Shown: piece by piece, positions 54,376 to 64,000 of the stretch
Layout: every line of letters starts with the position of its first letter
Position numbering within the stretch: position 1 is the first letter of the stretch
Assembly (NCBI GenBank): GCA_050250895.1
Contig: JBFWNU010000001.1
Location: 1,608,008 to 1,672,007 of the forward strand
Length of the DNA: 64,000 bases
From: Vulcanimicrobiota bacterium
GTDB lineage: Bacteria; Vulcanimicrobiota; Xenobia; Xenobiales; JADMJV01
Direction: 5' to 3'
Notes under the pieces: generated by a model
What the model was told of the DNA's origin: nothing
The model's input: only the letters and a program-made list of their open reading frames with translations
Database searches by the model: none
Translations under genes and position numbers: made by a program

Positions 54376-54933
54376 GTGCCAGCCCCCATCGTATCGAAAG
54401 AAGAAGTGTTGCAGCGCCTCACCGAGGCCTTTCGCCGGGTGGGCTACGAGGGGGCGTCCATGGCCTTTCTGGCCGAGCAGACCGGGCTCAAGAAGGCCAG
54501 CCTCTACCACTACTTTCCGGGCGGCAAGAAGGAGATGGGTGAGGCTGCCCTGGCTCAGGTCGGCTTGTGGTTACAGGACGAGATCCTGGCCACTCTGCTC
54601 CAAGACAAGCCTCCCCGGGAACGGTTGCAAGCCATGAGCGTCAGGCTCGACGAGTTCTATCAGTCGGGCCAGAAGTGGTGCCTGGTCGACCTCTTCTCGG
54701 TGGGCGAGGCGGGTCAGCACTTTCAGAGCATTCTTAAAGAGGCTCTAACCACCTGGATGAAAGAGTTGGCCCGAGTGGCCGAGCAGGCGGGAGTGGAGAA
54801 GAAGCTGGCTCGCCACCGGGCCGAAGAGGTCTTGATCGCCCTGCAAGGCTCCCTGGTCATGGCTCGCGCTCTGGGCGAACCCGGGCTTTTCTTGCGCACC
54901 CTTCGCGAGCTACCGGCTCGGATGCTCGATTAA
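54376..54933 (+). CDS. TetR/AcrR family transcriptional regulator
   Basis: FRRVGYEGASM..GLKKASLYHYFPGGK HTH; AGGAG RBS before GTG. Confidence 0.93.
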   Translation: MPAPIVSKEEVLQRLTEAFRRVGYEGASMAFLAEQTGLKKASLYHYFPGGKKEMGEAALAQVGLWLQDEILATLLQDKPPRERLQAMSVRLDEFYQSGQKWCLVDLFSVGEAGQHFQSILKEALTTWMKELARVAEQAGVEKKLARHRAEEVLIALQGSLVMARALGEPGLFLRTLRELPARMLD

Positions 54934-56276
54934 TCGGGAAATTTCCAGCCGGCCAGGAATTGGCGGCCCAGGCGCTTGCCCACATCTCGCAGTAGCGGAG
55001 CCAATTGGCGATAGGCCGAGAGCACCTCGACCACCTCATCGACCAGCCGCTCGACCTCCTCTGCGCGGATGGTCAGGGGCGGCTCGAGCTTGAGCACGTC
55101 CCAGCGCAGGGCGGCCGGTTGGCAGATGATGCCGCGCTCGAGCAGACGCACGGCCAGCCATTGGCCGAAGACGTTGCGCGAGACGGCTCCCACCACCGAG
55201 CCTTTCAAGCCCCCGGGCTCGACGCCCAGTTCCACGCCGACCAGCAAGCCGCGCCCACGCACTTCGCGGACCAGGGGGTGCCCGTCGAGGGCCGTGCGCA
55301 AGCCCTCGAGCAGTTGCTCGCCTCGTAGGCGCGCGTTTTCGACCAGGCTTTCCTCGCCGAGAATGCGCAAGCTGGCTCTGGCGGCGGCACAGCCGAGAGC
55401 GTAGCCCGAGAAGGTCGAGCCATGCAGGTCGAAGCGCTCCATCGTGCCATAGGCTCGCTGGTGCAAGTCTCGGCTGGTGAGACAGGCCGAGACCGGCAGG
55501 ATGCCGCCTCCCAGTGCCTTACCCAGAATCACCACATCGGGTTCGAGCTGGCCCTGAAAAGCAAACAGTTGCCCGCTGCGTCCCAGGCCGGTCTGGACCT
55601 CGTCGAGCAAGAGCAGCGAGCCGTTGGCCCGACACAAGCGCTGGGCCTGGCTCAGATAATCTGGCCCGGGCAGGCGGACCCCGCCCTCGCCCTGGATGGG
55701 CTCGACCAGAAAGGCGGCCACGCCGGGATGCAGGGCCTTCTCGAGGGCGGCCAGATCACCGAAGGGGACCCGCAGGCAGTCCGTCAGAAGCGGCTCGAAG
55801 GGGGCCCGCATGCGCTCGGCGCCCATCACCGAAAGCGCCCCGAAGCCGGTGCCGTGAAAGCCGTCTTCGCAGTAGACGAAGCCGGCCCGTCCGGTGGCCG
55901 CCCGGGCCAGCTTGAGGGCCGATTCGACCGCCTCGCCACCCGAGGTCGAAAACATGGCCACCTCGAGGGGTGGGCCGGCCAGGGCCGTCAGCTCTTGAGC
56001 CAGTTCGGCCACGGCTGGCGAGGGCCCGATGTGGAGCAGGTCGGGGTGGGGCTTGGCCAGCTCGTCAGACAGCGCCTTGCGTAGGGCCGGGTGGCGATGG
56101 CCGAGGTTGGTGGCTCCGAACCCGGCCAGGGCATCGAGATATTCGCGACCCTCGCTATCCCACAGTCGGGTGCCCTCGGCTCGCACAAAGACCCGGCCAT
56201 AGCCGAGAACGCCCAGCAGTTTGACGAAGGCCGGGTTGACGTGGCGGGCATAGGTCTCGACGATGGGGTGGCTCAG
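54930..56276 (-). CDS. Class III PLP-dependent aminotransferase; probable CTG start
   Basis: YLDALAGFG..LGH, FLVEPIQGEGG, DEVQTGLGRSG, GKALGGG; frame extends 30 codons above the track start (YARHVNPAFVKLLG) to a CTGA overlap with GGAGG RBS. Confidence 0.9.
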   Translation of the reverse strand: MSHPIVETYARHVNPAFVKLLGVLGYGRVFVRAEGTRLWDSEGREYLDALAGFGATNLGHRHPALRKALSDELAKPHPDLLHIGPSPAVAELAQELTALAGPPLEVAMFSTSGGEAVESALKLARAATGRAGFVYCEDGFHGTGFGALSVMGAERMRAPFEPLLTDCLRVPFGDLAALEKALHPGVAAFLVEPIQGEGGVRLPGPDYLSQAQRLCRANGSLLLLDEVQTGLGRSGQLFAFQGQLEPDVVILGKALGGGILPVSACLTSRDLHQRAYGTMERFDLHGSTFSGYALGCAAARASLRILGEESLVENARLRGEQLLEGLRTALDGHPLVREVRGRGLLVGVELGVEPGGLKGSVVGAVSRNVFGQWLAVRLLERGIICQPAALRWDVLKLEPPLTIRAEEVERLVDEVVEVLSAYRQLAPLLRDVGKRLGRQFLAGWKFPD

Positions 56277-57304
56277 GGGGCCTCCAGGCGGTCGCGCAAA
56301 GTGGCCGCAAGGGCCGGGGCGTCTTGAGCCATGCCGCGCAGGAACTGGCTGCTCACGCCGCGGGCGCAGTGGACTCCCATCAGGAACAGGCCAGGCGTAT
56401 TGACGCTCTCGCCCTGGTTGCCCAAGGGGTGGCCGTCGGCCGGCGAGCGAGCCACGCTCTCGGGCAGATAGGCCATGGCGTAGCGGTAGCCGGTGGCGCA
56501 GACCACCAGGTCGAACTCGGCCTGGCTGCCGTCGCTAAAGGTGGCCGTCTTGCCCTCGAAGGTCTTCACCGGGGGGCGCACCTGCAGCCGGCCCTCTTGC
56601 TGAAAACGGCGAAAGTCCTGGTCATAGCCGGTGAAGGTGGGTGACTTGCGGCAATAGCCCCAGGCCAGCCAGCGGGGCAGCCAGGACAGCCGAAAGGCAT
56701 AGTCATGAACATCGCGCCCCAGCAGGCGCTGAGGGCTGAACTTGACCTGGCCGCGGCAGCTGACCGTGGGCTTGAGGCCGGCTCGGCAGCTTTCTTCGGC
56801 GATCTCGACGGCGCTCACTCCACGACCGATGATGAGCAGACGCCGAGCGGCCAGCTGGTCGGGCCCTCGCCACTGGCTCGAGTGCATCCAGTTGGGTCCG
56901 AGGGGAAGGTCGGGCCAGTTCAACCCGTCCATGCCAGTGGCCGTGACCACGGCTTGAAAGTGCTGGCGGTGGTCGCCAAAATCGACCTCGAAACCGCCCT
57001 CGACCACCGTCAGGCTGGTCACTTCGGCCGGCTCGGGCTCGAGTTCGAAATGGCGCGCGTAGTGGTGCAGATAGTCGCGATAGCCGGCCACGGTGACGTA
57101 TTCTCCCGGTGTCTCGATGGCCAGACCCGGCAAGCTGGTCCAGCGGGCTGGCGACGAGAGCGTGATGCGTTCGTGTAGCCAGTTGTAGGCTCCACCCGGG
57201 CGGCCCTGGCGGTCGACGAAGCGGGCCTGGATACCCTGCTGAGCCAGGCTGGCCATGGTGGCAAGCCCCGCCGGTCCTGCTCCGATCACCAGCACCTGAC
57301 TCAT
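56273..57304 (-). CDS. Flavin-containing monooxygenase-like NAD(P)/FAD oxidoreductase
   Basis: GAGPAG, ATG, WMHSSQWR (FMO motif), GRGVSA, ATGY. Confidence 0.88.
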   Translation of the reverse strand: MSQVLVIGAGPAGLATMASLAQQGIQARFVDRQGRPGGAYNWLHERITLSSPARWTSLPGLAIETPGEYVTVAGYRDYLHHYARHFELEPEPAEVTSLTVVEGGFEVDFGDHRQHFQAVVTATGMDGLNWPDLPLGPNWMHSSQWRGPDQLAARRLLIIGRGVSAVEIAEESCRAGLKPTVSCRGQVKFSPQRLLGRDVHDYAFRLSWLPRWLAWGYCRKSPTFTGYDQDFRRFQQEGRLQVRPPVKTFEGKTATFSDGSQAEFDLVVCATGYRYAMAYLPESVARSPADGHPLGNQGESVNTPGLFLMGVHCARGVSSQFLRGMAQDAPALAATLRDRLEAP

Positions 57305-57380
57305 TCCCAGGCTTTCGCGAGGTCGACCGACCATCCCGCCGGGGAAAGAAAAGATGCCGGGGGGGCGAACTCTAGACTCC

Positions 57381-58130
57381 ATGGGACTTCTCTCGCGCGA
57401 TACCTCGCCCGAAGCTGAAAAAGTTCAGTTTGACATCCTCCGACGCCGCGGCATGCAGGGGCGGCTGGTCCTGCTAGAAGAGGCGATGCTGACCGGCTGG
57501 GCTCTGGCTCGCATGGGGGTGGCCCAGCGGCACGGTGAAGGCGTGCCAGATGCCGACCAGGAGAAAGACGCGATGAAGCCACTGGAAACCCCGCTTGAGG
57601 TGACGCGGGTGCTCGACGCTTTGGCTATTCCCTATGTGGTCGGCGGTTCCTACGCCAGCAGCCTCCACGGGGAACCGCGCTCTACTCGCGATTGTGATCT
57701 GGTGGTGGAATTGGTCAAAGGGCATCTCGGTCGCTTTTGCCAGGCCCTCGAGGACAAATTCTACTTGAGTCGAGCAGCCATCGAAGAGGCCTTGGCTCGC
57801 AAGAGCACGTTCAATCTCATTCACTTTCAAACAGGTTTCAAGATCGACATCTTCGTCTCGGCTGGGCGCCCGTTCGACCGAGAGCGCATGGCCCGAGCCC
57901 TGGTTCTCGAGGTTGCCGGCCAACCGGTCAGATTCTCGACGGCCGAGGACACGATCCTGGCCAAATTGGAGTGGCAGGCTCTGTCGAACAGCGAACAGCA
58001 GTGGCGCGATATTCTCGGTATCGTCCTGCTAGCGGAAGACGGCTTGGACCGGGGCTATCTGCGCCATTGGGCAACCGAACTCGGTGTGCTTGAGCAACTC
58101 GAGCAAGCCTTCGCGGCGGTTAGCGAATAA
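57381..58130 (+). CDS. Nucleotidyltransferase-fold protein with N-terminal antitoxin-like segment
   Basis: VVGGSYASSLHGEPRSTRDCDLVV NTase motif, KIDIF, EDTILAKL; N-terminal DTSPEAEKVQFDILRR; internal AGGAG-ATG at 57573. Confidence 0.8.
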   Translation: MGLLSRDTSPEAEKVQFDILRRRGMQGRLVLLEEAMLTGWALARMGVAQRHGEGVPDADQEKDAMKPLETPLEVTRVLDALAIPYVVGGSYASSLHGEPRSTRDCDLVVELVKGHLGRFCQALEDKFYLSRAAIEEALARKSTFNLIHFQTGFKIDIFVSAGRPFDRERMARALVLEVAGQPVRFSTAEDTILAKLEWQALSNSEQQWRDILGIVLLAEDGLDRGYLRHWATELGVLEQLEQAFAAVSE

Positions 58131-59592
58131 ACGGGCCTTTGCCGAAAGGAGCGCCGCCCGTGCCGGGCCCCTTGGCGGCCCCGCGGTGGAACAGGTTGAA
58201 ACCGCAGGCCGGCATGATGCGGCCGTCGATCTGCGGGTAGTGATGACAGCACTTCATCAGCCGTTCGACATCGAAGTCGTGGCGGTCCATGTAATGGTGG
58301 ATGAAAATGGTCTTGACCTGGCGCTCGGCGATGCGGATCAGTTCCTGGCGGGGTAGATTCTGGTTGGGAAACATCTCGAGCAGGGCCCGGCGCATGGCCT
58401 TGATGATCTTCTGGCTGTCGGGCACTTCTCCCGCGGCGCTCCACAGGTCATCGATGACCTGGCGAATGGAGTCCTCAGTCTGGGCGTTGGGCTCGATGGT
58501 GGCCGTCTGGGCGAATAGATCGAGATGCTTGCGCATGTCGACAAAGCGAGGAAACGGCAAGAAGGTGCCGTCGCCCATATTGAGCAGGTAGGTCAGCGAC
58601 ACGCACAGCGGGTGCGAGCATGGCAGCGGGATGAAGTCTTCGCGGGCCACCGCTCCGTCGGTTTGCTCGTCGATGGCCCGGATGACTCCGGGAATGGTCA
58701 GCCGGTCCATCGGATCGTGCGGAAAGACGCCGCCCCCGTGGCCGGTGGCCGAGAAAGGCTGGATCAAGAGCGAGAGCACATGGTCGCGCTCCATTAGCAG
58801 GCGCACCGCGTCGCCCAGCTGGTGCTCGTTGACCCCCCGGGCCGGCACATAAGCGATCTGGGTCGAGATGCCCAGCTCGGCTAGATTTTCGAGGGCTTTC
58901 CACTTGGTCTCCATCAGCGGCACCCCGCGGATGGTCGTTTGGATCTCGTCGGTAAAGCCGTCGAGCTGCAAGATGACATAGACGTTGCGAGCCTTGAGTT
59001 GCTCGCAAAACTCGCGCGAGTTGGCGATGCGAATGCCGTTGGTCACCACCGACACGCGGCCGATTTCGGGCCGGGTGGCCATGTCCACCAGCTCGAGAAA
59101 ACGGGGATGGGAGGTGGGTTCGCCTCCGCTCAGGGTGATGGTCTCGAGACTGCCCTCGGCTTTGAGCAGCAGGTCGATGATGCCCTGGAAGTCGTCGTTG
59201 GTCATGTGGTTGGAATACTGGTTATTCACGATGCACACCGGGCATTCGAGGTTGCAGTGATCGGTGATCTCGACGATGGGCAGACAGGTGTGCTGCTGGT
59301 GGGCCGGGCACAGACCGCAGTCGGTGGGGCAGCCGGCCTTGACGGCGGTAGAGAAGTGCAAAGGGGTGCTGCCCGGCTTGATGTAGGAAAAGGCCTTCTG
59401 GTAATACTCGGCGTCTTCGCTGACCAGGGCTTCGCTATGGCCATGGTCGGGGCAGAACTTGAGAAAATAGACCTTGCCTTCGCGAAAGACCACCTGCGCC
59501 TGAATGATCTTGAGACACTCGGGGCAGCAGCTCATGGTCATCTTGAAGAAGGTGTAAGGGCGGTCGCCTCGGCAACAGGATGGACTGGTCAT
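58120..59592 (-). CDS. Radical SAM enzyme of the Tes/GDGT-MAS/Mss (MJ0619-like) family
   Basis: N-terminal CPEC..CPDHG, CPTDCGLCPAH..TC, CNLECPVC, GGEP, C-terminal MD..ERLMKCC..DGRIMPAC; ATGA overlap with the ACP gene. Confidence 0.88.
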   Translation of the reverse strand: MTSPSCCRGDRPYTFFKMTMSCCPECLKIIQAQVVFREGKVYFLKFCPDHGHSEALVSEDAEYYQKAFSYIKPGSTPLHFSTAVKAGCPTDCGLCPAHQQHTCLPIVEITDHCNLECPVCIVNNQYSNHMTNDDFQGIIDLLLKAEGSLETITLSGGEPTSHPRFLELVDMATRPEIGRVSVVTNGIRIANSREFCEQLKARNVYVILQLDGFTDEIQTTIRGVPLMETKWKALENLAELGISTQIAYVPARGVNEHQLGDAVRLLMERDHVLSLLIQPFSATGHGGGVFPHDPMDRLTIPGVIRAIDEQTDGAVAREDFIPLPCSHPLCVSLTYLLNMGDGTFLPFPRFVDMRKHLDLFAQTATIEPNAQTEDSIRQVIDDLWSAAGEVPDSQKIIKAMRRALLEMFPNQNLPRQELIRIAERQVKTIFIHHYMDRHDFDVERLMKCCHHYPQIDGRIMPACGFNLFHRGAAKGPGTGGAPFGKGPFIR

Positions 59593-59966
59593 GGGGTTTG
59601 CACTTCCTTCTGTTTCAGCTCGACCACCCGGGCCAGGCTGGCCACCGTGATGTGCGAGAAAAGATCGGCTGGATAGAGCGGTCGGGGAGCCTGACGCAGG
59701 CTGGGCAGCCATTCATACAGGCGCTCGAGGTCGGGTTCGCTCAGGGGACCCTGTTCTTGCTCGCTCAACTCGCCCCGCAATAGCCGGTCGAGCTCAGAGT
59801 TGCGCAACTTGACGCGAAAGCGTTTTTCCAGCGTAAAGAGCAGGTCGAGCAGGTCCAACGAGTCGGCGCCCAGGTCATCGAACAGGCGCGATTCGGACTG
59901 AACGTCGTCGGGGTCGAGGGCGAGCCGCTCGCACAGAACCGTTTGAACCGTTGCCACGACGCTCAC
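59589..59966 (-). CDS. Acyl carrier protein with internal insertion
   Basis: DDLGADSLDLLDLLFTLEKRF phosphopantetheine site; about 45 extra residues before ITVASL. Confidence 0.9.
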   Translation of the reverse strand: MSVVATVQTVLCERLALDPDDVQSESRLFDDLGADSLDLLDLLFTLEKRFRVKLRNSELDRLLRGELSEQEQGPLSEPDLERLYEWLPSLRQAPRPLYPADLFSHITVASLARVVELKQKEVQTP

Positions 59967-60731: not shown

Positions 60732-60760
60732 TTGCGTATAGGGAATTGGTCGGCTATACT
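60732..60760 (+). promoter_or_regulatory. Putative sigma70 promoter of the B-box/Ubl/E1 operon
   Basis: TTGCGT-17 nt-TATACT. Confidence 0.62.
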
Positions 60761-60796
60761 TGAATTCCATGTCGGTAGGGGTGAGGGTGAAGTTTC

Positions 60797-61192
60797 TTGC
60801 AGTGTAGTTCCCATCCAGAAGTCGAGGCCACTACGCGTTGCGAAGGATGTGGCGAGCTGTTTTGCCACCAGTGCACCACCGAGGTGCGAGGCGAGAAATA
60901 CTGCCGGGCCTGCAAGCACATCCCCATCCTGGGCAATCCTATCGGCGCTCTCTCTGACCAGAGCCCTGGCGAAACCTGTCAACCGGCGGCCGAGGCCCTC
61001 AAGTTCGCCGTCATCGGAATGCTCTGCTGCGGAGCGATCATGGGCCCGCTGGCCGTCATCAAGGCGCTCGAAGCCAAGAAGCTCATCGAGAACGAGCCTC
61101 ACTATACCGGGGTCGGAATGGCCAATGCCGCGCTTTTGGTGGGCGGCATGGAGACTTTGATCTGGCTGGTTGGCCTGTTGGGGAACGGCTGA
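60797..61192 (+). CDS. B-box-type zinc finger plus DUF4190-like membrane domain
   Basis: CSSHP..CEGC..FCHQC..YCRAC; two TMs with GPLAVIKA..TGVGMANAALLVG. Confidence 0.82.
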   Translation: MQCSSHPEVEATTRCEGCGELFCHQCTTEVRGEKYCRACKHIPILGNPIGALSDQSPGETCQPAAEALKFAVIGMLCCGAIMGPLAVIKALEAKKLIENEPHYTGVGMANAALLVGGMETLIWLVGLLGNG

Positions 61193-61824
61193 TGAGAGAG
61201 TTGATCTGCCCCGAGTGCCAGGCCGAGATCGTGGTGCTCGATGACAAGACCGCCTATTGCCCGCGCCACGGTGGCAAGTTCAAACTGTTGCATCTGGCTC
61301 CGGCCTCTCGGGTCGAACTGGCCCGTGAACTCGAGACGACGACGCCGGGGCCGGGAGTGGGCAACCAGAAGTGCCACTATCATCAGGAGGTCGACGCCAG
61401 GTTCTTGTGTCGTGGCTGCGGCAAGCCGTGTTGCCGACTGTGCACGTTTGCCATTGGAATGATGAAGCTGTGCGCCGATTGTGCCACCACCGGGCCCGAG
61501 CCGCTCATTCCCAAGCGTAAGAAACTCGTGGATAACGCCCTGCGGCTGGCCGGATTGGCCACCTTCTTCTTCGTGGGCATCATCGTCTTGTTGGTTTCGG
61601 GTAGCGATCTCTTAGCGATTCTGGGAGTGCTGGGGATCTTCTTGATTCCGTTCTTCGTCATGATCCCGTCGACGGTGGGCTTTTTCATGGCGCTAGAGGC
61701 GGTCGACCGACATCTCGAGAATCCTGTGGTGTTATGGGGGGCTCTCATCTGGAATGGTCTCATCTTTAGCATCTTTGCCTATCTGGGGCTGCGTTTCCTG
61801 GTGGCCCTGTTCCTGGGGGTATGA
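61192..61824 (+). CDS. Zinc ribbon plus B-box zinc finger plus 3-TM membrane protein
   Basis: CPEC..CPRH; CHYHQ..CRGCGKPCCRLC..LCADC; hydrophobic C-terminal half. Confidence 0.82.
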   Translation: MRELICPECQAEIVVLDDKTAYCPRHGGKFKLLHLAPASRVELARELETTTPGPGVGNQKCHYHQEVDARFLCRGCGKPCCRLCTFAIGMMKLCADCATTGPEPLIPKRKKLVDNALRLAGLATFFFVGIIVLLVSGSDLLAILGVLGIFLIPFFVMIPSTVGFFMALEAVDRHLENPVVLWGALIWNGLIFSIFAYLGLRFLVALFLGV

Positions 61825-62492
61825 TCGTGCAATATGAGATTCACGCCGATACGACCTTTGCGGTGCGACGCCTGGCCATCACTCCCCAAGGGGTCGTCTA
61901 CACCCGCTCGATCGGGCAACCCCTGCACGTTCTCTACCCAGACATCACGGCTGTCCTGGTTTCGAGTACCGACATGCTGACCATTCACGCCAAAGGCGAG
62001 ATCATGCGTCTGGGGCTCAAGCCCGAGCACCAGCCGGCCCTGCAGGCGATGCTGGGTTATCTCAAAGCGGCCGTGCCCGAGGCCGAGGACGCCCTCGAGG
62101 CCACCTTTAGCGAGCACCCGCCCGAGCTACCGCCGGAAGAGCCGGTGCGCCAACCGGGTGGCCTCAAAGAAGTGAAGTTCGCTCCTATGTCGGCCCAAGA
62201 ATTGGCCGCGAGGCGACAGCCTCCGCCCGGAGCCCAGAACATTCCCGAGCCTAGCAAATTGGGACAGGTGAGTCCTCGAATCGGTTCCAAGCCGGTCTCG
62301 CTCGGTGTCGAAGGCTCGCCCCAGCCTAAGGCCCAGCCGGATCATGAGGCGATGTTGATGGAGCGCCGGGCCCGCCAATACGACCTGCCTCCCAGCGCGC
62401 CCCCCATTCCCAAGCCGGCTGCCGATAGCCCCAGCGGACCCATCAGCGCAGCCGAGATCATCAAGCGCAGGCAAGCGCGAGAGGAGAGCTAG
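61821..62492 (+). CDS. PH-like domain protein with Pro-rich disordered tail
   Basis: RLAITPQGVVY..YPDITAV..LTI..C-terminal helix pattern typical of bacterial PH folds; ATGA overlap. Confidence 0.6.
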   Translation: MIVQYEIHADTTFAVRRLAITPQGVVYTRSIGQPLHVLYPDITAVLVSSTDMLTIHAKGEIMRLGLKPEHQPALQAMLGYLKAAVPEAEDALEATFSEHPPELPPEEPVRQPGGLKEVKFAPMSAQELAARRQPPPGAQNIPEPSKLGQVSPRIGSKPVSLGVEGSPQPKAQPDHEAMLMERRARQYDLPPSAPPIPKPAADSPSGPISAAEIIKRRQAREES

Positions 62493-62762
62493 ATGTCAGA
62501 GGTTCGCGTCAAGATTCTGGACGTTTCCGGCAGCCGCAGTCGTGAAGCCGAACTGCCGGCTGACGTGCCGGTCGAGCGCTTGCTCATTCTGCTGGTCGAA
62601 CGACTCGAACTGCCGCTCAACAGCCCCGACGGGCAGCTGATGGTCTACAAGCTTCACCATCGCGCCAGCGGGCGCCAGTTGCTCGATCACGAGACCCTGG
62701 GCCAGGCCCAGGTCAAGCACGGCGAAGAGTTGCGTCTGCAGCCGGAGATCATCGCTGGATGA
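62493..62762 (+). CDS. Ubiquitin-like protein (EsaB/YukD-like beta-grasp) ending in Gly
   Basis: VRVKILD..ELPADVPVERL..QLLDHETLGQAQVKHGEELRLQPEIIAG; directly upstream of E1. Confidence 0.88.
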   Translation: MSEVRVKILDVSGSRSREAELPADVPVERLLILLVERLELPLNSPDGQLMVYKLHHRASGRQLLDHETLGQAQVKHGEELRLQPEIIAG

Positions 62763-63928
62763 CGATGACCCTGGCAGAGGGCCGCTTTGCTCGCTTCTCG
62801 CAGATCGGGTGGTGGAATCAAGAGCTGCTCGCTCGGGCTCGCGTACTGGTGATCGGAGCCGGCGCGCTCGGCAACGAAGTGGTCAAGAACCTGGCTTTGC
62901 TCGGGGTCGGCAATCTGGTCATCGCCGATATGGACACCATCGAGCTCTCGAATCTAAGCCGAAGTGTCCTCTTTCGGGCTGAAGACGAAGGCAAGGCCAA
63001 AGCCGAGGTGGCGGCCGCCGCCGCGCGCTCCCTCTATCCCGACATGAAGATTCAGGCGGTGGTGGTGAACGTGCTGGCAGGTTTGGGCCTGGGCTACTTC
63101 CGCTGGGCCCACGTCGTGGTGGGGGCCCTCGACAATCGCGAGGCGCGGGTCTTTGTCAACAGTCGCTGCGCTCAACTGGGCAAGGCCTGGTTCGATGGAG
63201 GCATCGAGGCGCTCAACGGGGTGGTGCGCGGCTTTTCGGCCCCCGACACGGCTTGCTATGAGTGCACCATGTCCAAGCAAGACTGGGAGCAGATCGAGAA
63301 ACGGCGCTCCTGCTCTTTGTTGGCCCGCCAAGCCCTGGCTCAGGGGACCATGCCGACGACGCCGACTACCGCCTCGGTGATCGGCGGGATGCAGGCTCAA
63401 GAGTTGGTGAAGTTCTTGCACCACGGTCACGACGAGTCGGCCTTGCTGGGCAAGGGCTTCTTTTTCGAAGGGCTGCGGCATTCGTCCTATCCCATCAGCT
63501 ATCGAATCAACCCCGAATGTCCCTGGCACGAGCCCGCCTGCTCCGTCGAGAGTTGCCCGCAGTTTTCGAGCCAGACCGTGATCGACGAGCTCTGGTCTTT
63601 CGCCGAGGAGCGCCTGGGTGGCCTGGACGGGCTGGATTTTTCGCGCGAGATGGTCGAGCGCCTCACTTGCCCGAGCTGTGGCGACGAGCGCCAACTCTAC
63701 AAAGCCCTGGACCACCTCAGCGAGGCTGACGCCCCCTGTCCCGAGTGTGGGCAAGAGTGCTTTCCGGCCCTTTTTCACGGGGTCCACGCCAGCAGCGCCG
63801 CCCGAGCTCAGACGCCGGCCCAGCTGGGTCTGCCGCGCTGGGACATCATCTGGGCTCGCCGTGGTGAGGAGTATCTCGGCCTCGAACTCAGCGGCGACCG
63901 GCCTGAAGAACTCGGGGTGCCGGCATGA
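62759..63928 (+). CDS. E1-like (ThiF/MoeB family) ubiquitin-activating enzyme with C-terminal zinc-ribbon domain
   Basis: GAGALGNE, SNLSRS, DNREAR, CYEC, candidate catalytic Cys in RSCSLL, CPWH, CPSC..CPEC. Confidence 0.93.
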   Translation: MTMTLAEGRFARFSQIGWWNQELLARARVLVIGAGALGNEVVKNLALLGVGNLVIADMDTIELSNLSRSVLFRAEDEGKAKAEVAAAAARSLYPDMKIQAVVVNVLAGLGLGYFRWAHVVVGALDNREARVFVNSRCAQLGKAWFDGGIEALNGVVRGFSAPDTACYECTMSKQDWEQIEKRRSCSLLARQALAQGTMPTTPTTASVIGGMQAQELVKFLHHGHDESALLGKGFFFEGLRHSSYPISYRINPECPWHEPACSVESCPQFSSQTVIDELWSFAEERLGGLDGLDFSREMVERLTCPSCGDERQLYKALDHLSEADAPCPECGQECFPALFHGVHASSAARAQTPAQLGLPRWDIIWARRGEEYLGLELSGDRPEELGVPA

Positions 63929-64000
63929 AAGTGGGCGAGTGGAACGAAGAAACCGAGTGGGCTCGCAAGGACTTTCCCGGCCCGGCCGGTGTCGACGAGA
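63925..64000 (+). CDS. Next gene of the operon, 3'-truncated (MKVGEWNEETEWARKDFPGPAGVDE...)
   Basis: ATGA overlap with the E1 stop; open to the window end; product cannot be identified from 25 aa. Confidence 0.6.
   Translation, partial: MKVGEWNEETEWARKDFPGPAGVDE

Follow-up and report, generated by a model that had tools for sequence, protein, structure and literature searches.

The end of a 64,000-nucleotide stretch of contig JBFWNU010000001.1 from a Vulcanimicrobiota bacterium (GenBank assembly GCA_050250895.1; G000:C1:1608008-1672007, here called the window) carries the beginning of an operon predicted to encode a ubiquitin-like protein (Ubl) together with enzymes that would attach it to targets and remove it. 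Five complete open reading frames (ORFs) and the start of a sixth lie on the plus strand from 60797 to the end of the window, with junctions that read, in order, TGATG, ATGA, TAG-ATG, ATGA and ATGA, exactly as described in an earlier annotation of the window (the original prediction). The continuation was fetched as a separate stretch, L002, in which a position plus 58000 gives the window position. Two details of the original prediction call for correction. The start of the locus had been placed at 60732, which proves to be the TTG of an ORF in another frame that overlaps g1 and not the start of the B-box gene; g1 itself begins at a TTG at 60797, two codons past the preceding in-frame stop. 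A single promoter had also been proposed, and was not confirmed, as a sigma-70 consensus scan of L002 1900-10000 returned no plus-strand site and one minus-strand site against 1.1 expected by chance.

The nine genes (Table 1) are co-oriented and mostly overlapping, and in our judgement they probably form a self-contained, membrane-tethered system for Ubl conjugation and deconjugation. Judged by the domains that their sequences match, they encode a Ubl, an activating enzyme (E1), a conjugating enzyme (E2), a RING ligase (E3), a deubiquitinase, two B-box membrane proteins, a membrane protein that ends in an FHA domain and a small protein without a known family. A membrane anchor is found in five of the nine proteins, whose zinc or catalytic domains lie at the N-terminus. 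In the whole genome YukD and UQ_con are each matched once, and B-box three times, two of these in the operon; NCBIfam holds no family for seven of the nine proteins. The original prediction, made on a window that ends within g6, had looked to the DNA beyond it for JAB, E2 and RING genes, and all three are there.

Table 1. Genes of the operon and the gene that adjoins it (window positions unless L002 is given)
Gene	Position	Strand	Description
g1	60797..61192	+	B-box zinc finger, then DUF4190-type membrane hairpin; 131 amino acids, TTG start
g2	61192..61824	+	N-terminal zinc ribbon, one B-box (C61...C98), 3-4 transmembrane helices; 210 amino acids
g3	61821..62492	+	Conserved N-terminal domain of ~90 amino acids without Pfam family, proline-rich tail; 223 amino acids
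g4	62493..62762	+	YukD-type Ubl, 89 amino acids, C-terminus ...PEIIAG
g5	62759..63928	+	ThiF-fold E1, 389 amino acids, extra C-terminal four-Cys domain
g6	63925..64000 in the window; L002 5925-6974; ends G000:C1:1672981	+	JAB/MPN metallopeptidase, 349 amino acids
g7	L002 6986-8317	+	Multi-pass membrane protein with C-terminal FHA domain; 11-base spacer after g6
g8	L002 8314-8874	+	RING, zinc ribbon and transmembrane segment; ATGA overlap with g7
g9	L002 8871-9353	+	UBC-type E2; start overlaps g8
DUF2752 gene	L002 9336-9899 (window-extended 67336-67899)	-	Convergent with the operon, adjoins g9

Core enzymes of the proposed conjugation system

The predicted E1, g5, matches Pfam ThiF with an E-value of 1.9e-53, and the same scan returned no second domain such as a rhodanese domain. 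Both the candidate catalytic Cys and the C-terminal zinc domain proposed for it are borne out by conservation: across 33 sequences the GxGxxGxE motif (33-40), R68, K81, D125 and C185 are invariant, as are a zinc site formed by C166/C169/C254/H257 and the four C-terminal cysteines C304/C307/C327/C330. C185 lies 16 residues past the first CxxC, which we take to be the site of the reactive Cys in ThiF and UBA5; the alignment ranges against solved relatives are consistent with this placement. The closest solved relatives are eukaryotic, namely UBA7 (1.1e-29) followed by UBA1, SAE2 and UBA3 down to 1e-20, with ThiF (6e-18) and MoeB (7e-14) behind them. The predicted E2, g9, matches UQ_con (1.2e-14, 54.6 bits against a cut-off of 27), and its profile matches eukaryotic E2s such as Ubc13 and UbcH10. 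H88, P89, N90 and C97 are invariant in a three-sequence alignment, and the HPN motif and the Cys are at least 90% conserved among 52 sequences. By these comparisons the predicted E1 and E2 stand nearer to their eukaryotic counterparts than to ThiF and MoeB.

The putative deubiquitinase g6 matches JAB (9.8e-11) and Prok-JAB (1.7e-10). Its E...HxH...S..D motif is intact (E50, H114, H116, S124, D127) and conserved in 38 sequences, and one transmembrane helix spans residues 223-241. The candidate ligase g8 carries the ligands C3, C6, C19, C22, H27, C30, C37 and C42 in a C4HC3 arrangement (C-x2-C-x12-C-x2-C-x4-H-x2-C-x6-C-x4-C); the orthologue at locus L047 scores 44.4 bits against Prok-RING_1. The full pattern is found in 36 of the 46 called orthologues, the other ten probably having been given a start that lies too late. 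The residue preceding the second Cys is hydrophobic in 34 of the 36 complete RINGs (Ile in 25), and a Trp follows H-x2-C in 44 of 45 orthologues, the protein of this genome having Tyr; both positions presumably correspond to E2 contacts in eukaryotic RINGs such as c-Cbl.

The ubiquitin-like protein and its terminus

The g4 product was predicted to be an 89-residue Ubl ending in IIAG, and indeed matches Pfam YukD (PF08817; 3.1e-12, 47.5 bits against a cut-off of 27). A88, G89 and K53 are invariant in 30 sequences, and all 40 Ubl orthologues from genome loci have an E[I/V][T/I]AG terminus. Nine of these 40, that of this genome among them, stop at the Gly; 30 continue into tails of 1-57 residues that are unrelated to each other, and one is fused to E1. 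Among metagenome Ubls the proportion stopping at the Gly is 8 of 31. The fusion is a natural one, in which a single ORF of 500 amino acids (L031 641-2143) runs from the Ala-Gly through a linker of ~20 residues into the E1. An invariant Gly followed by free-running tails is the sign of a carboxylate that is exposed by a peptidase and then activated, which argues against a purely structural, YukD-like role. The view that the Ubl needs no maturation therefore holds for this genome and not for the family, in which the JAB protein probably also acts as the Ubl maturase, to judge from these termini.

The FHA membrane protein and DUF2752

The g7 protein begins with a single helix, followed by a variable and probably periplasmic loop, some six helices rich in glycine and, at about residues 345-443, an FHA domain at the C-terminus. 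Its best Pfam match is Yop-YscD_cpl (3.7e-14), with FHA at 4e-8, which places the domain in the YscD/EssC-like cytoplasmic FHA family. In an alignment with GarA, Ala stands in place of the Arg of the G-R motif and Leu in place of the Ser of S-x-x-H, and the family consensus, IGxSPRSD...VAxxHA, has neither Arg nor Ser at these two positions, which we take to be the residues that hold phosphothreonine in canonical FHA domains. The membrane part contains many invariant Gly, Arg, Gln and Asp residues; when 29 orthologues were compared with Pfam only FHA was found, apart from a faint Gly-zipper_YMGG match in four, and the membrane part belongs to no known Pfam family. The gene is conserved in both clades described below, the Chloroflexota loci excepted.

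In the type VIIb secretion system of B. subtilis, two YukB FHA domains clasp YukD, which stabilises them, according to the available text of that report (PMC12637312). As the g7 FHA domain has a YscD/EssC-like match, it is proposed to bind the Ubl, and by analogy we read g7 as a non-covalent Ubl receptor or effector. The likeness to YukD/EsaB and YukB(EssC) lies in the pairing of a YukD-fold Ubl with a non-phosphopeptide FHA membrane protein; the difference is that the type VIIb system, as far as that text describes it, has no E1, E2, RING or JAB, and the operon studied here has no secretion ATPase (PMC12637312). Neither an EssC/YukB-type ATPase nor a WXG100 gene was found in the operon or its flanks.

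A gene for a DUF2752 protein, which in this genome is adjacent and on the opposite strand, stands beside the operon in 19 of 56 sources (L015, L025, L026, L030, L044, L051 and L055 among them), where it may follow the E2 gene, precede g1 or lie inside the cluster. All seven such neighbours that were tested pass the Pfam cut-off, and the gene is present in 10 of the best 80 metagenome loci. It is probably a loosely attached tenth component.

B-box proteins and putative accessory protein g3

A B-box with DUF4190 had been predicted for g1, and a zinc ribbon, a B-box and transmembrane helices for g2. The eight zinc ligands of the g1 B-box (C3, H6, C15, C18, C23, C26, C36, C39) are invariant in 28 orthologues, as is K40. 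The g2 B-box has an E-value of 2.4e-4 and, in a second search, reaches 25.5 bits, above the cut-off of 24.1 for the B-box family (PF00643), and the orthologue at L010 reaches 29.1 bits; many g2 orthologues have two B-boxes. The g1 and g2 B-boxes are homologous (hhalign probability 97%), and the membrane parts of g1 and g8 are weakly similar (hhalign 56%). Indeed g1, g2 and g8 share one plan, with an N-terminal cytosolic treble-clef zinc domain followed by C-terminal transmembrane helices. The third B-box protein of the genome (G000:C5:268535-268618; L066 1255-1737, minus strand) consists of a B-box and one transmembrane helix; it is encoded apart from any Ubl gene, beside a phosphodiesterase-like gene and a TPR-like gene.

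The g3 protein, put forward as PH-like in the original prediction, as a whole matched nothing in Pfam, and tblastn with it found no homologue. Many loci, however, have a small ORF between g2 and the Ubl gene, and a hidden Markov model (HMM) built from these ORFs matches the first ~90 residues of g3 (9e-21). By this measure half of the core loci (14 of 28) and 14 of 19 complete metagenome operons have a g3 homologue at that position. The proline-rich tail noted in the original prediction is real, and is peculiar to this genome. Among 5.8 billion clusters the g3 family comprises 127 proteins at E <= 1e-3, and among the 120 matches listed there is no Pfam domain and no name other than 'hypothetical protein'. 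A Pfam search with 14 g3 orthologues gave no family in common, and comparison of the profile with Protein Data Bank (PDB) sequences gave nothing meaningful, the best match (E 0.11) lying in the proline-rich tail. One metagenome contig (L112 9065-10659) has genes for B-box1 (the g1 protein), B-box2 (the g2 protein) and a g3 homologue followed by unrelated genes, and no Ubl or enzyme gene; as g1-g2-g3 can thus stand alone, they constitute a separable module. A rare rearrangement is seen at L092 9-2771, where the B-box1 gene is on the opposite strand and points away from B-box2-Ubl-E1.

Distribution and linkage of the operon

When 185,579 species genomes were searched with the E2, 55 loci from many phyla came to light. 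Within the phylum 4 of 401 genomes, this one included, have an E2 match, and within the family none of the 15 others does; the cassette is met again in phyla that include Planctomycetota, Verrucomicrobiota, Acidobacteriota and Gemmatimonadota. Among sequencing runs no RNA run was listed as containing the operon, and six DNA runs contain small shares of it (0.08-0.11), from which no conclusion on expression or habitat is drawn. When tblastn was combined with HMMs built from its matches, 27 loci besides this one were found to carry g1, Ubl, E1 and E2, in the order g1, g2, Ubl, E1, JAB, g7, RING, E2 (g2 of L042 by HMM only), and the g1 HMM matched 28 of 56 sources. By pattern and HMM there are two or three B-boxes per core locus, and one or two in the truncated loci L031 and L059; elsewhere among the loci no B-box was found apart from two weak minus-strand matches.

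The original prediction had staked its case on conserved linkage of the B-box genes to Ubl-E1, and this is what the survey found from both directions. A tree of 38 E1 sequences (L028 was left out, the start of its E1 being miscalled) splits with 100/99 support into a clade of 31 and a group of seven without B-boxes. Of the 31, 27 have B-boxes and the other four (L014, L031, L055, L059) are cut off upstream; the B-box pair is thus present in 27 of the 27 loci of this clade with enough upstream DNA, and in none of the five sister-clade loci with several kilobases upstream (L047, L051, L053, L062, L063). For the reverse search B-box1 was the query against metagenome contigs; of the 275 stretches that matched, 180 are relatives, and the 80 best were retained. 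Of the 28 metagenome loci with at least 2.5 kb downstream, 27 hold Ubl and E1 on the same strand, L112 being the exception, and where the downstream DNA reaches at least 6.1 kb, in 19 loci, the set of eight genes is complete in every one.

Comparison of the clade variants leads to an invariant core of Ubl, E1, E2, RING and JAB. The clade of Riflebacteria and Planctomycetaceae has no B-boxes, and has extra RING proteins with transmembrane segments and E2s with a Cys-rich tail. At two of its loci (L047 8613-10004, L051 8652-10004) transmembrane helices join a Prok-RING_1 domain to a trypsin-like protease (Trypsin_2, 6.9e-23) in one fusion protein. The Cys-rich E2 tails (L047, L007/L049) resemble a B-box by eye, and were considered as E2-B-box fusions; this was rejected, as they match neither the Pfam B-box nor our own B-box HMM. 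In the Chloroflexota clade the order is E1-Ubl-E2-JAB-JAB-RING, and the FHA protein is missing. In another genome of the same phylum (L007, G007:C4, 3059-7198) genes for an FHA protein, two RING membrane proteins and an E2 directly follow lepA, with no Ubl, E1 or JAB gene nearby.

The flanking genes of the 28 core loci include no common family beyond pairs of close relatives, with the exception of DUF2752. Upstream of the operon in this genome, on the minus strand at 54930-59966, lie genes for an acyl carrier protein (ACP), a radical S-adenosylmethionine (SAM) enzyme with an HMPTM-type zinc ribbon, a flavin monooxygenase-like protein and a class III aminotransferase, which may together form a small biosynthetic cluster; these genes are not kept beside the operon in other genomes. 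As had been stated in the original prediction, the neighbours are unrelated to sulfur transfer, and no sulfur-carrier, thiamine or molybdenum cofactor (Moco) genes are found near the operon.

Discussion

The core of the operon is of a kind that was predicted in 2011. Burroughs, Iyer and Aravind (Mol Biosyst 2011) reportedly predicted RING E3s that act with E1, E2, JAB and conjugated YukD-like Ubls, work that is said to be the source of Pfam Prok-RING_1, and they are said to have placed prokaryotic B-boxes with membrane peptidases, outside the ubiquitin system. As is reported for those operons, five functions are gathered here in one operon, the Ubl is YukD-like, the RINGs are membrane-anchored and the spread is sporadic, over Planctomycetes, Acidobacteria and others. 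In contrast with that reported placement, the B-box pair here is a fixed part of one operon clade, and the literature searched contained no paper tying B-box or DUF4190 proteins to a RING-containing bacterial Ubl operon. It is the B-box1/B-box2/g3 module, the degenerate FHA partner and the DUF2752 neighbour that make this variant worth bench work. The available text of two papers (PMC4197634, PMC5654768), citing the 2011 study, describes related, uncharacterised ubiquitylation operons as scattered in diverse bacteria.

The system can be set beside others that hold some or all of the same enzymes. One is the Ub-E1-E2-RING-Rpn11 operon of Caldiarchaeum subterraneum, whose proteins we presume to be soluble. 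It shares with the present operon the minimal set of modifier, E1, UBC-type E2, RING E3 and JAB (PMC3082918, PMC5654768, PMC6043591, in the portions available), and it has been reconstituted in vitro, where Rpn11 processes the ubiquitin precursor (PMC5654768, PMC6043591). Its modifier is ubiquitin-like, whereas that described here is YukD-like, and the accessible descriptions of it include no B-box, FHA or DUF2752 genes. The Bil (types I and II), Bub and CBASS Cap2/Cap3 systems are E1/E2/JAB/Ubl operons for which conjugation has been shown at the bench; they are sparsely distributed, and some are antiphage (10.1101/2024.11.21.623966, available text). They are described there without an E3 gene, Bub having an extra DUF6527 protease, in contrast with the RING E3 of the present operon (10.1101/2024.11.21.623966). 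Membership of the Bil antiphage system (bilA-D) was tried and rejected, as PADLOC gave only a partial BilD match (7.3e-7, residues 27-89) and a generic JAB match, and no match for the E2, Ubl, RING, B-box or FHA proteins.

Two families of eukaryotic ligases invite comparison as well. TRIM ligases have the composition RING-B-box-coiled coil, so that RING and B-box co-occur in them, and MARCH and Doa10 are membrane RING-CH ligases. The present system resembles the former in having RING and B-box in one system, and the latter in having a C4HC3 RING at the N-terminus of a membrane protein together with a UBC E2. Unlike TRIM ligases, it has its RING (g8) and its B-boxes (g1, g2) on separate proteins, and the homology shown here does not go beyond the zinc-finger folds. 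Assignment to the TRIM-type E3s was rejected on this ground, the RING and B-boxes being encoded as separate membrane proteins.

The original prediction of a protein-conjugation system accords with the gene content, the conserved residues and the linkage reported here. The chemistry at each step is our inference, as are the targets, the biological trigger and what the B-box proteins, g3, g7 and DUF2752 do. In the proposed scheme the soluble E1 would adenylate Gly89 of the Ubl and hold it as a thioester on Cys185, from which the Ubl would move to Cys97 of the E2. The membrane-anchored C4HC3 RING protein g8 would bring E2~Ubl to targets on the inner side of the cytoplasmic membrane, and the Ubl would there be joined to a target amine, most likely that of a lysine. 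The membrane-anchored JAB would reverse the mark and, in orthologues with tailed or E1-fused Ubls, also expose the terminal Gly. The g7 FHA domain, lacking the residues for phosphothreonine binding, may hold the Ubl non-covalently, by analogy with YukD and YukB. The B-box pair and g3 would be a clade-specific, separable accessory module, a substrate-recruiting part or a substrate and not the ligase. Indeed the operon has its own RING E3, with conservation at the presumed E2-contacting positions, and the B-box proteins thus need not be the ligase; as the sister clades have RING, E2, E1 and JAB without B-box, it is not needed for the core reaction. The patchy distribution across phyla is more readily explained by an accessory module for stress or conflict than by a housekeeping pathway.

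It should be emphasized that several observations weigh against a conjugation system with a role in stress or conflict. Two of the domain calls rest on scores under Pfam cut-offs: g8 reaches 27.6 bits against Prok-RING_1 (2.9e-6), for which the gathering cut-off is 29.1, and g1 falls short for both of its domains, with DUF4190 at 1.3e-6 and B-box at 3e-4 to 9e-4 (19.9-22.8 bits). B. subtilis YukD, the namesake of the Pfam family to which the Ubl belongs, is reported not to be conjugated (PMC1779556, available text). The operon encodes no protease or unfoldase that could read the tag, and by itself it points to no conjugation target. Within the B-box clade the E1 tree partly follows the phyla, and part of the spread is therefore vertical. 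When viral contigs were scanned with the E2 alignment, 10 matches to the pattern emerged, none of them a relative, and the scan lends no direct support to a defence role; no defence genes neighbour the operon, and PADLOC has no dedicated family for it, returning generic E1 and JAB matches only. Finally, the main texts of the literature searched contained no experimental study of a RING-containing bacterial operon.

The alternative that survives best concerns the role of the system and not its chemistry. It could be argued that the operon serves housekeeping or regulatory turnover of membrane proteins, in the manner of endoplasmic-reticulum-associated degradation (ERAD), and is not a conflict or stress module. 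The membrane C4HC3 RING, the UBC E2 and the Rpn11-like JAB are consistent with such a role, the fusion of RING and transmembrane helices to a trypsin-like protease in a sister clade ties the system to membrane proteolysis, and there are neither defence genes nearby nor viral copies. A distribution confined to so few genomes of the phylum, with no other in the family and with unconserved flanks, is nevertheless unlike that of a housekeeping system, and the operon comes without an unfoldase or protease. We thus regard turnover as a serious but unlikely alternative to a stress or conflict module.

Less likely still is a ligase built in part from the B-box proteins, the E3-like role among those suggested in the original prediction, with the RING protein g8 and the two B-box proteins assembling through their membrane hairpins into a split, TRIM-like E3. 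In favour of this are the shared plan of g1, g2 and g8, the homology of the two B-boxes, the strict co-occurrence of the B-box genes with the RING-E2 genes in one clade and the association of B-boxes with RINGs in eukaryotic TRIM ligases. Against it, the sister clades retain the core enzymes in the absence of B-boxes, L112 carries g1-g2-g3 with no Ubl or enzyme genes adjacent, and g1 and g8 resemble each other only weakly in their membrane parts. Atg8, which becomes attached to phosphatidylethanolamine, provides a model for the attachment of a Ubl to a lipid. In a more elaborate and decidedly speculative version, which we consider improbable, the RING, the B-box proteins, g3 and DUF2752 would make up one membrane E3 complex that, on envelope or phage stress, attaches the Ubl to g7 or to an amine-bearing lipid and so switches a pore or scaffold, with JAB resetting the system.

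It is very unlikely that the Ubl goes unconjugated and acts as a structural clamp of the YukD/EsaB kind, building a membrane complex around the FHA protein while E1, E2 and JAB have other roles. The YukD match and the conserved neighbouring membrane protein with its YscD/EssC-like FHA domain speak for this, as does the non-covalent binding of YukD to the YukB FHA domains (PMC12637312), together with the reported lack of YukD conjugation (PMC1779556), so far as the accessible parts of these papers go. The clamp does not account for the invariant Ala-Gly, the variable tails and the one E1 fusion, a pattern that makes sense only if the Gly carboxylate is put to use; conservation extends to the catalytic Cys of E1 and E2, the HPN and JAMM motifs and the RING ligands, and the operon contains no EssC-type ATPase or WXG100 gene. 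A sulfur carrier of the ThiS/MoaD-ThiF/MoeB type, serving a cofactor or natural product, is close to refuted, for in spite of the ThiF fold of the E1 and of the radical SAM enzyme and ACP encoded upstream on the other strand, the E2, RING and JAB genes are translationally coupled to E1, the E1 reaches only 123 of 275 bits for ThiF and 117 of 449 for MoeB against the NCBIfam cut-offs and has no second Pfam domain, and the upstream genes are not kept beside the operon elsewhere.

If, as we favour, the operon is a membrane-tethered conjugation system, then one small cassette holds every enzymatic step of eukaryote-style ubiquitination: an E1, a UBC E2 with its HPN motif, a RING E3 and a JAMM deubiquitinase. 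It is set apart from Bil, Bub and CBASS by its true RING E3 and by the anchoring of most of its proteins in the membrane. The pairing of a bacterial B-box with RING and E2 bears on the origin of the RING-B-box partnership of TRIM ligases, and a conjugatable YukD-type Ubl beside an FHA membrane protein brings together two uses of the ubiquitin fold hitherto regarded as separate. The split-E3 membrane machine, if true, would be without precedent among bacterial Ubl systems in joining a RING-B-box partnership to a membrane read-out. The genes are small, and these predictions are thus directly testable.

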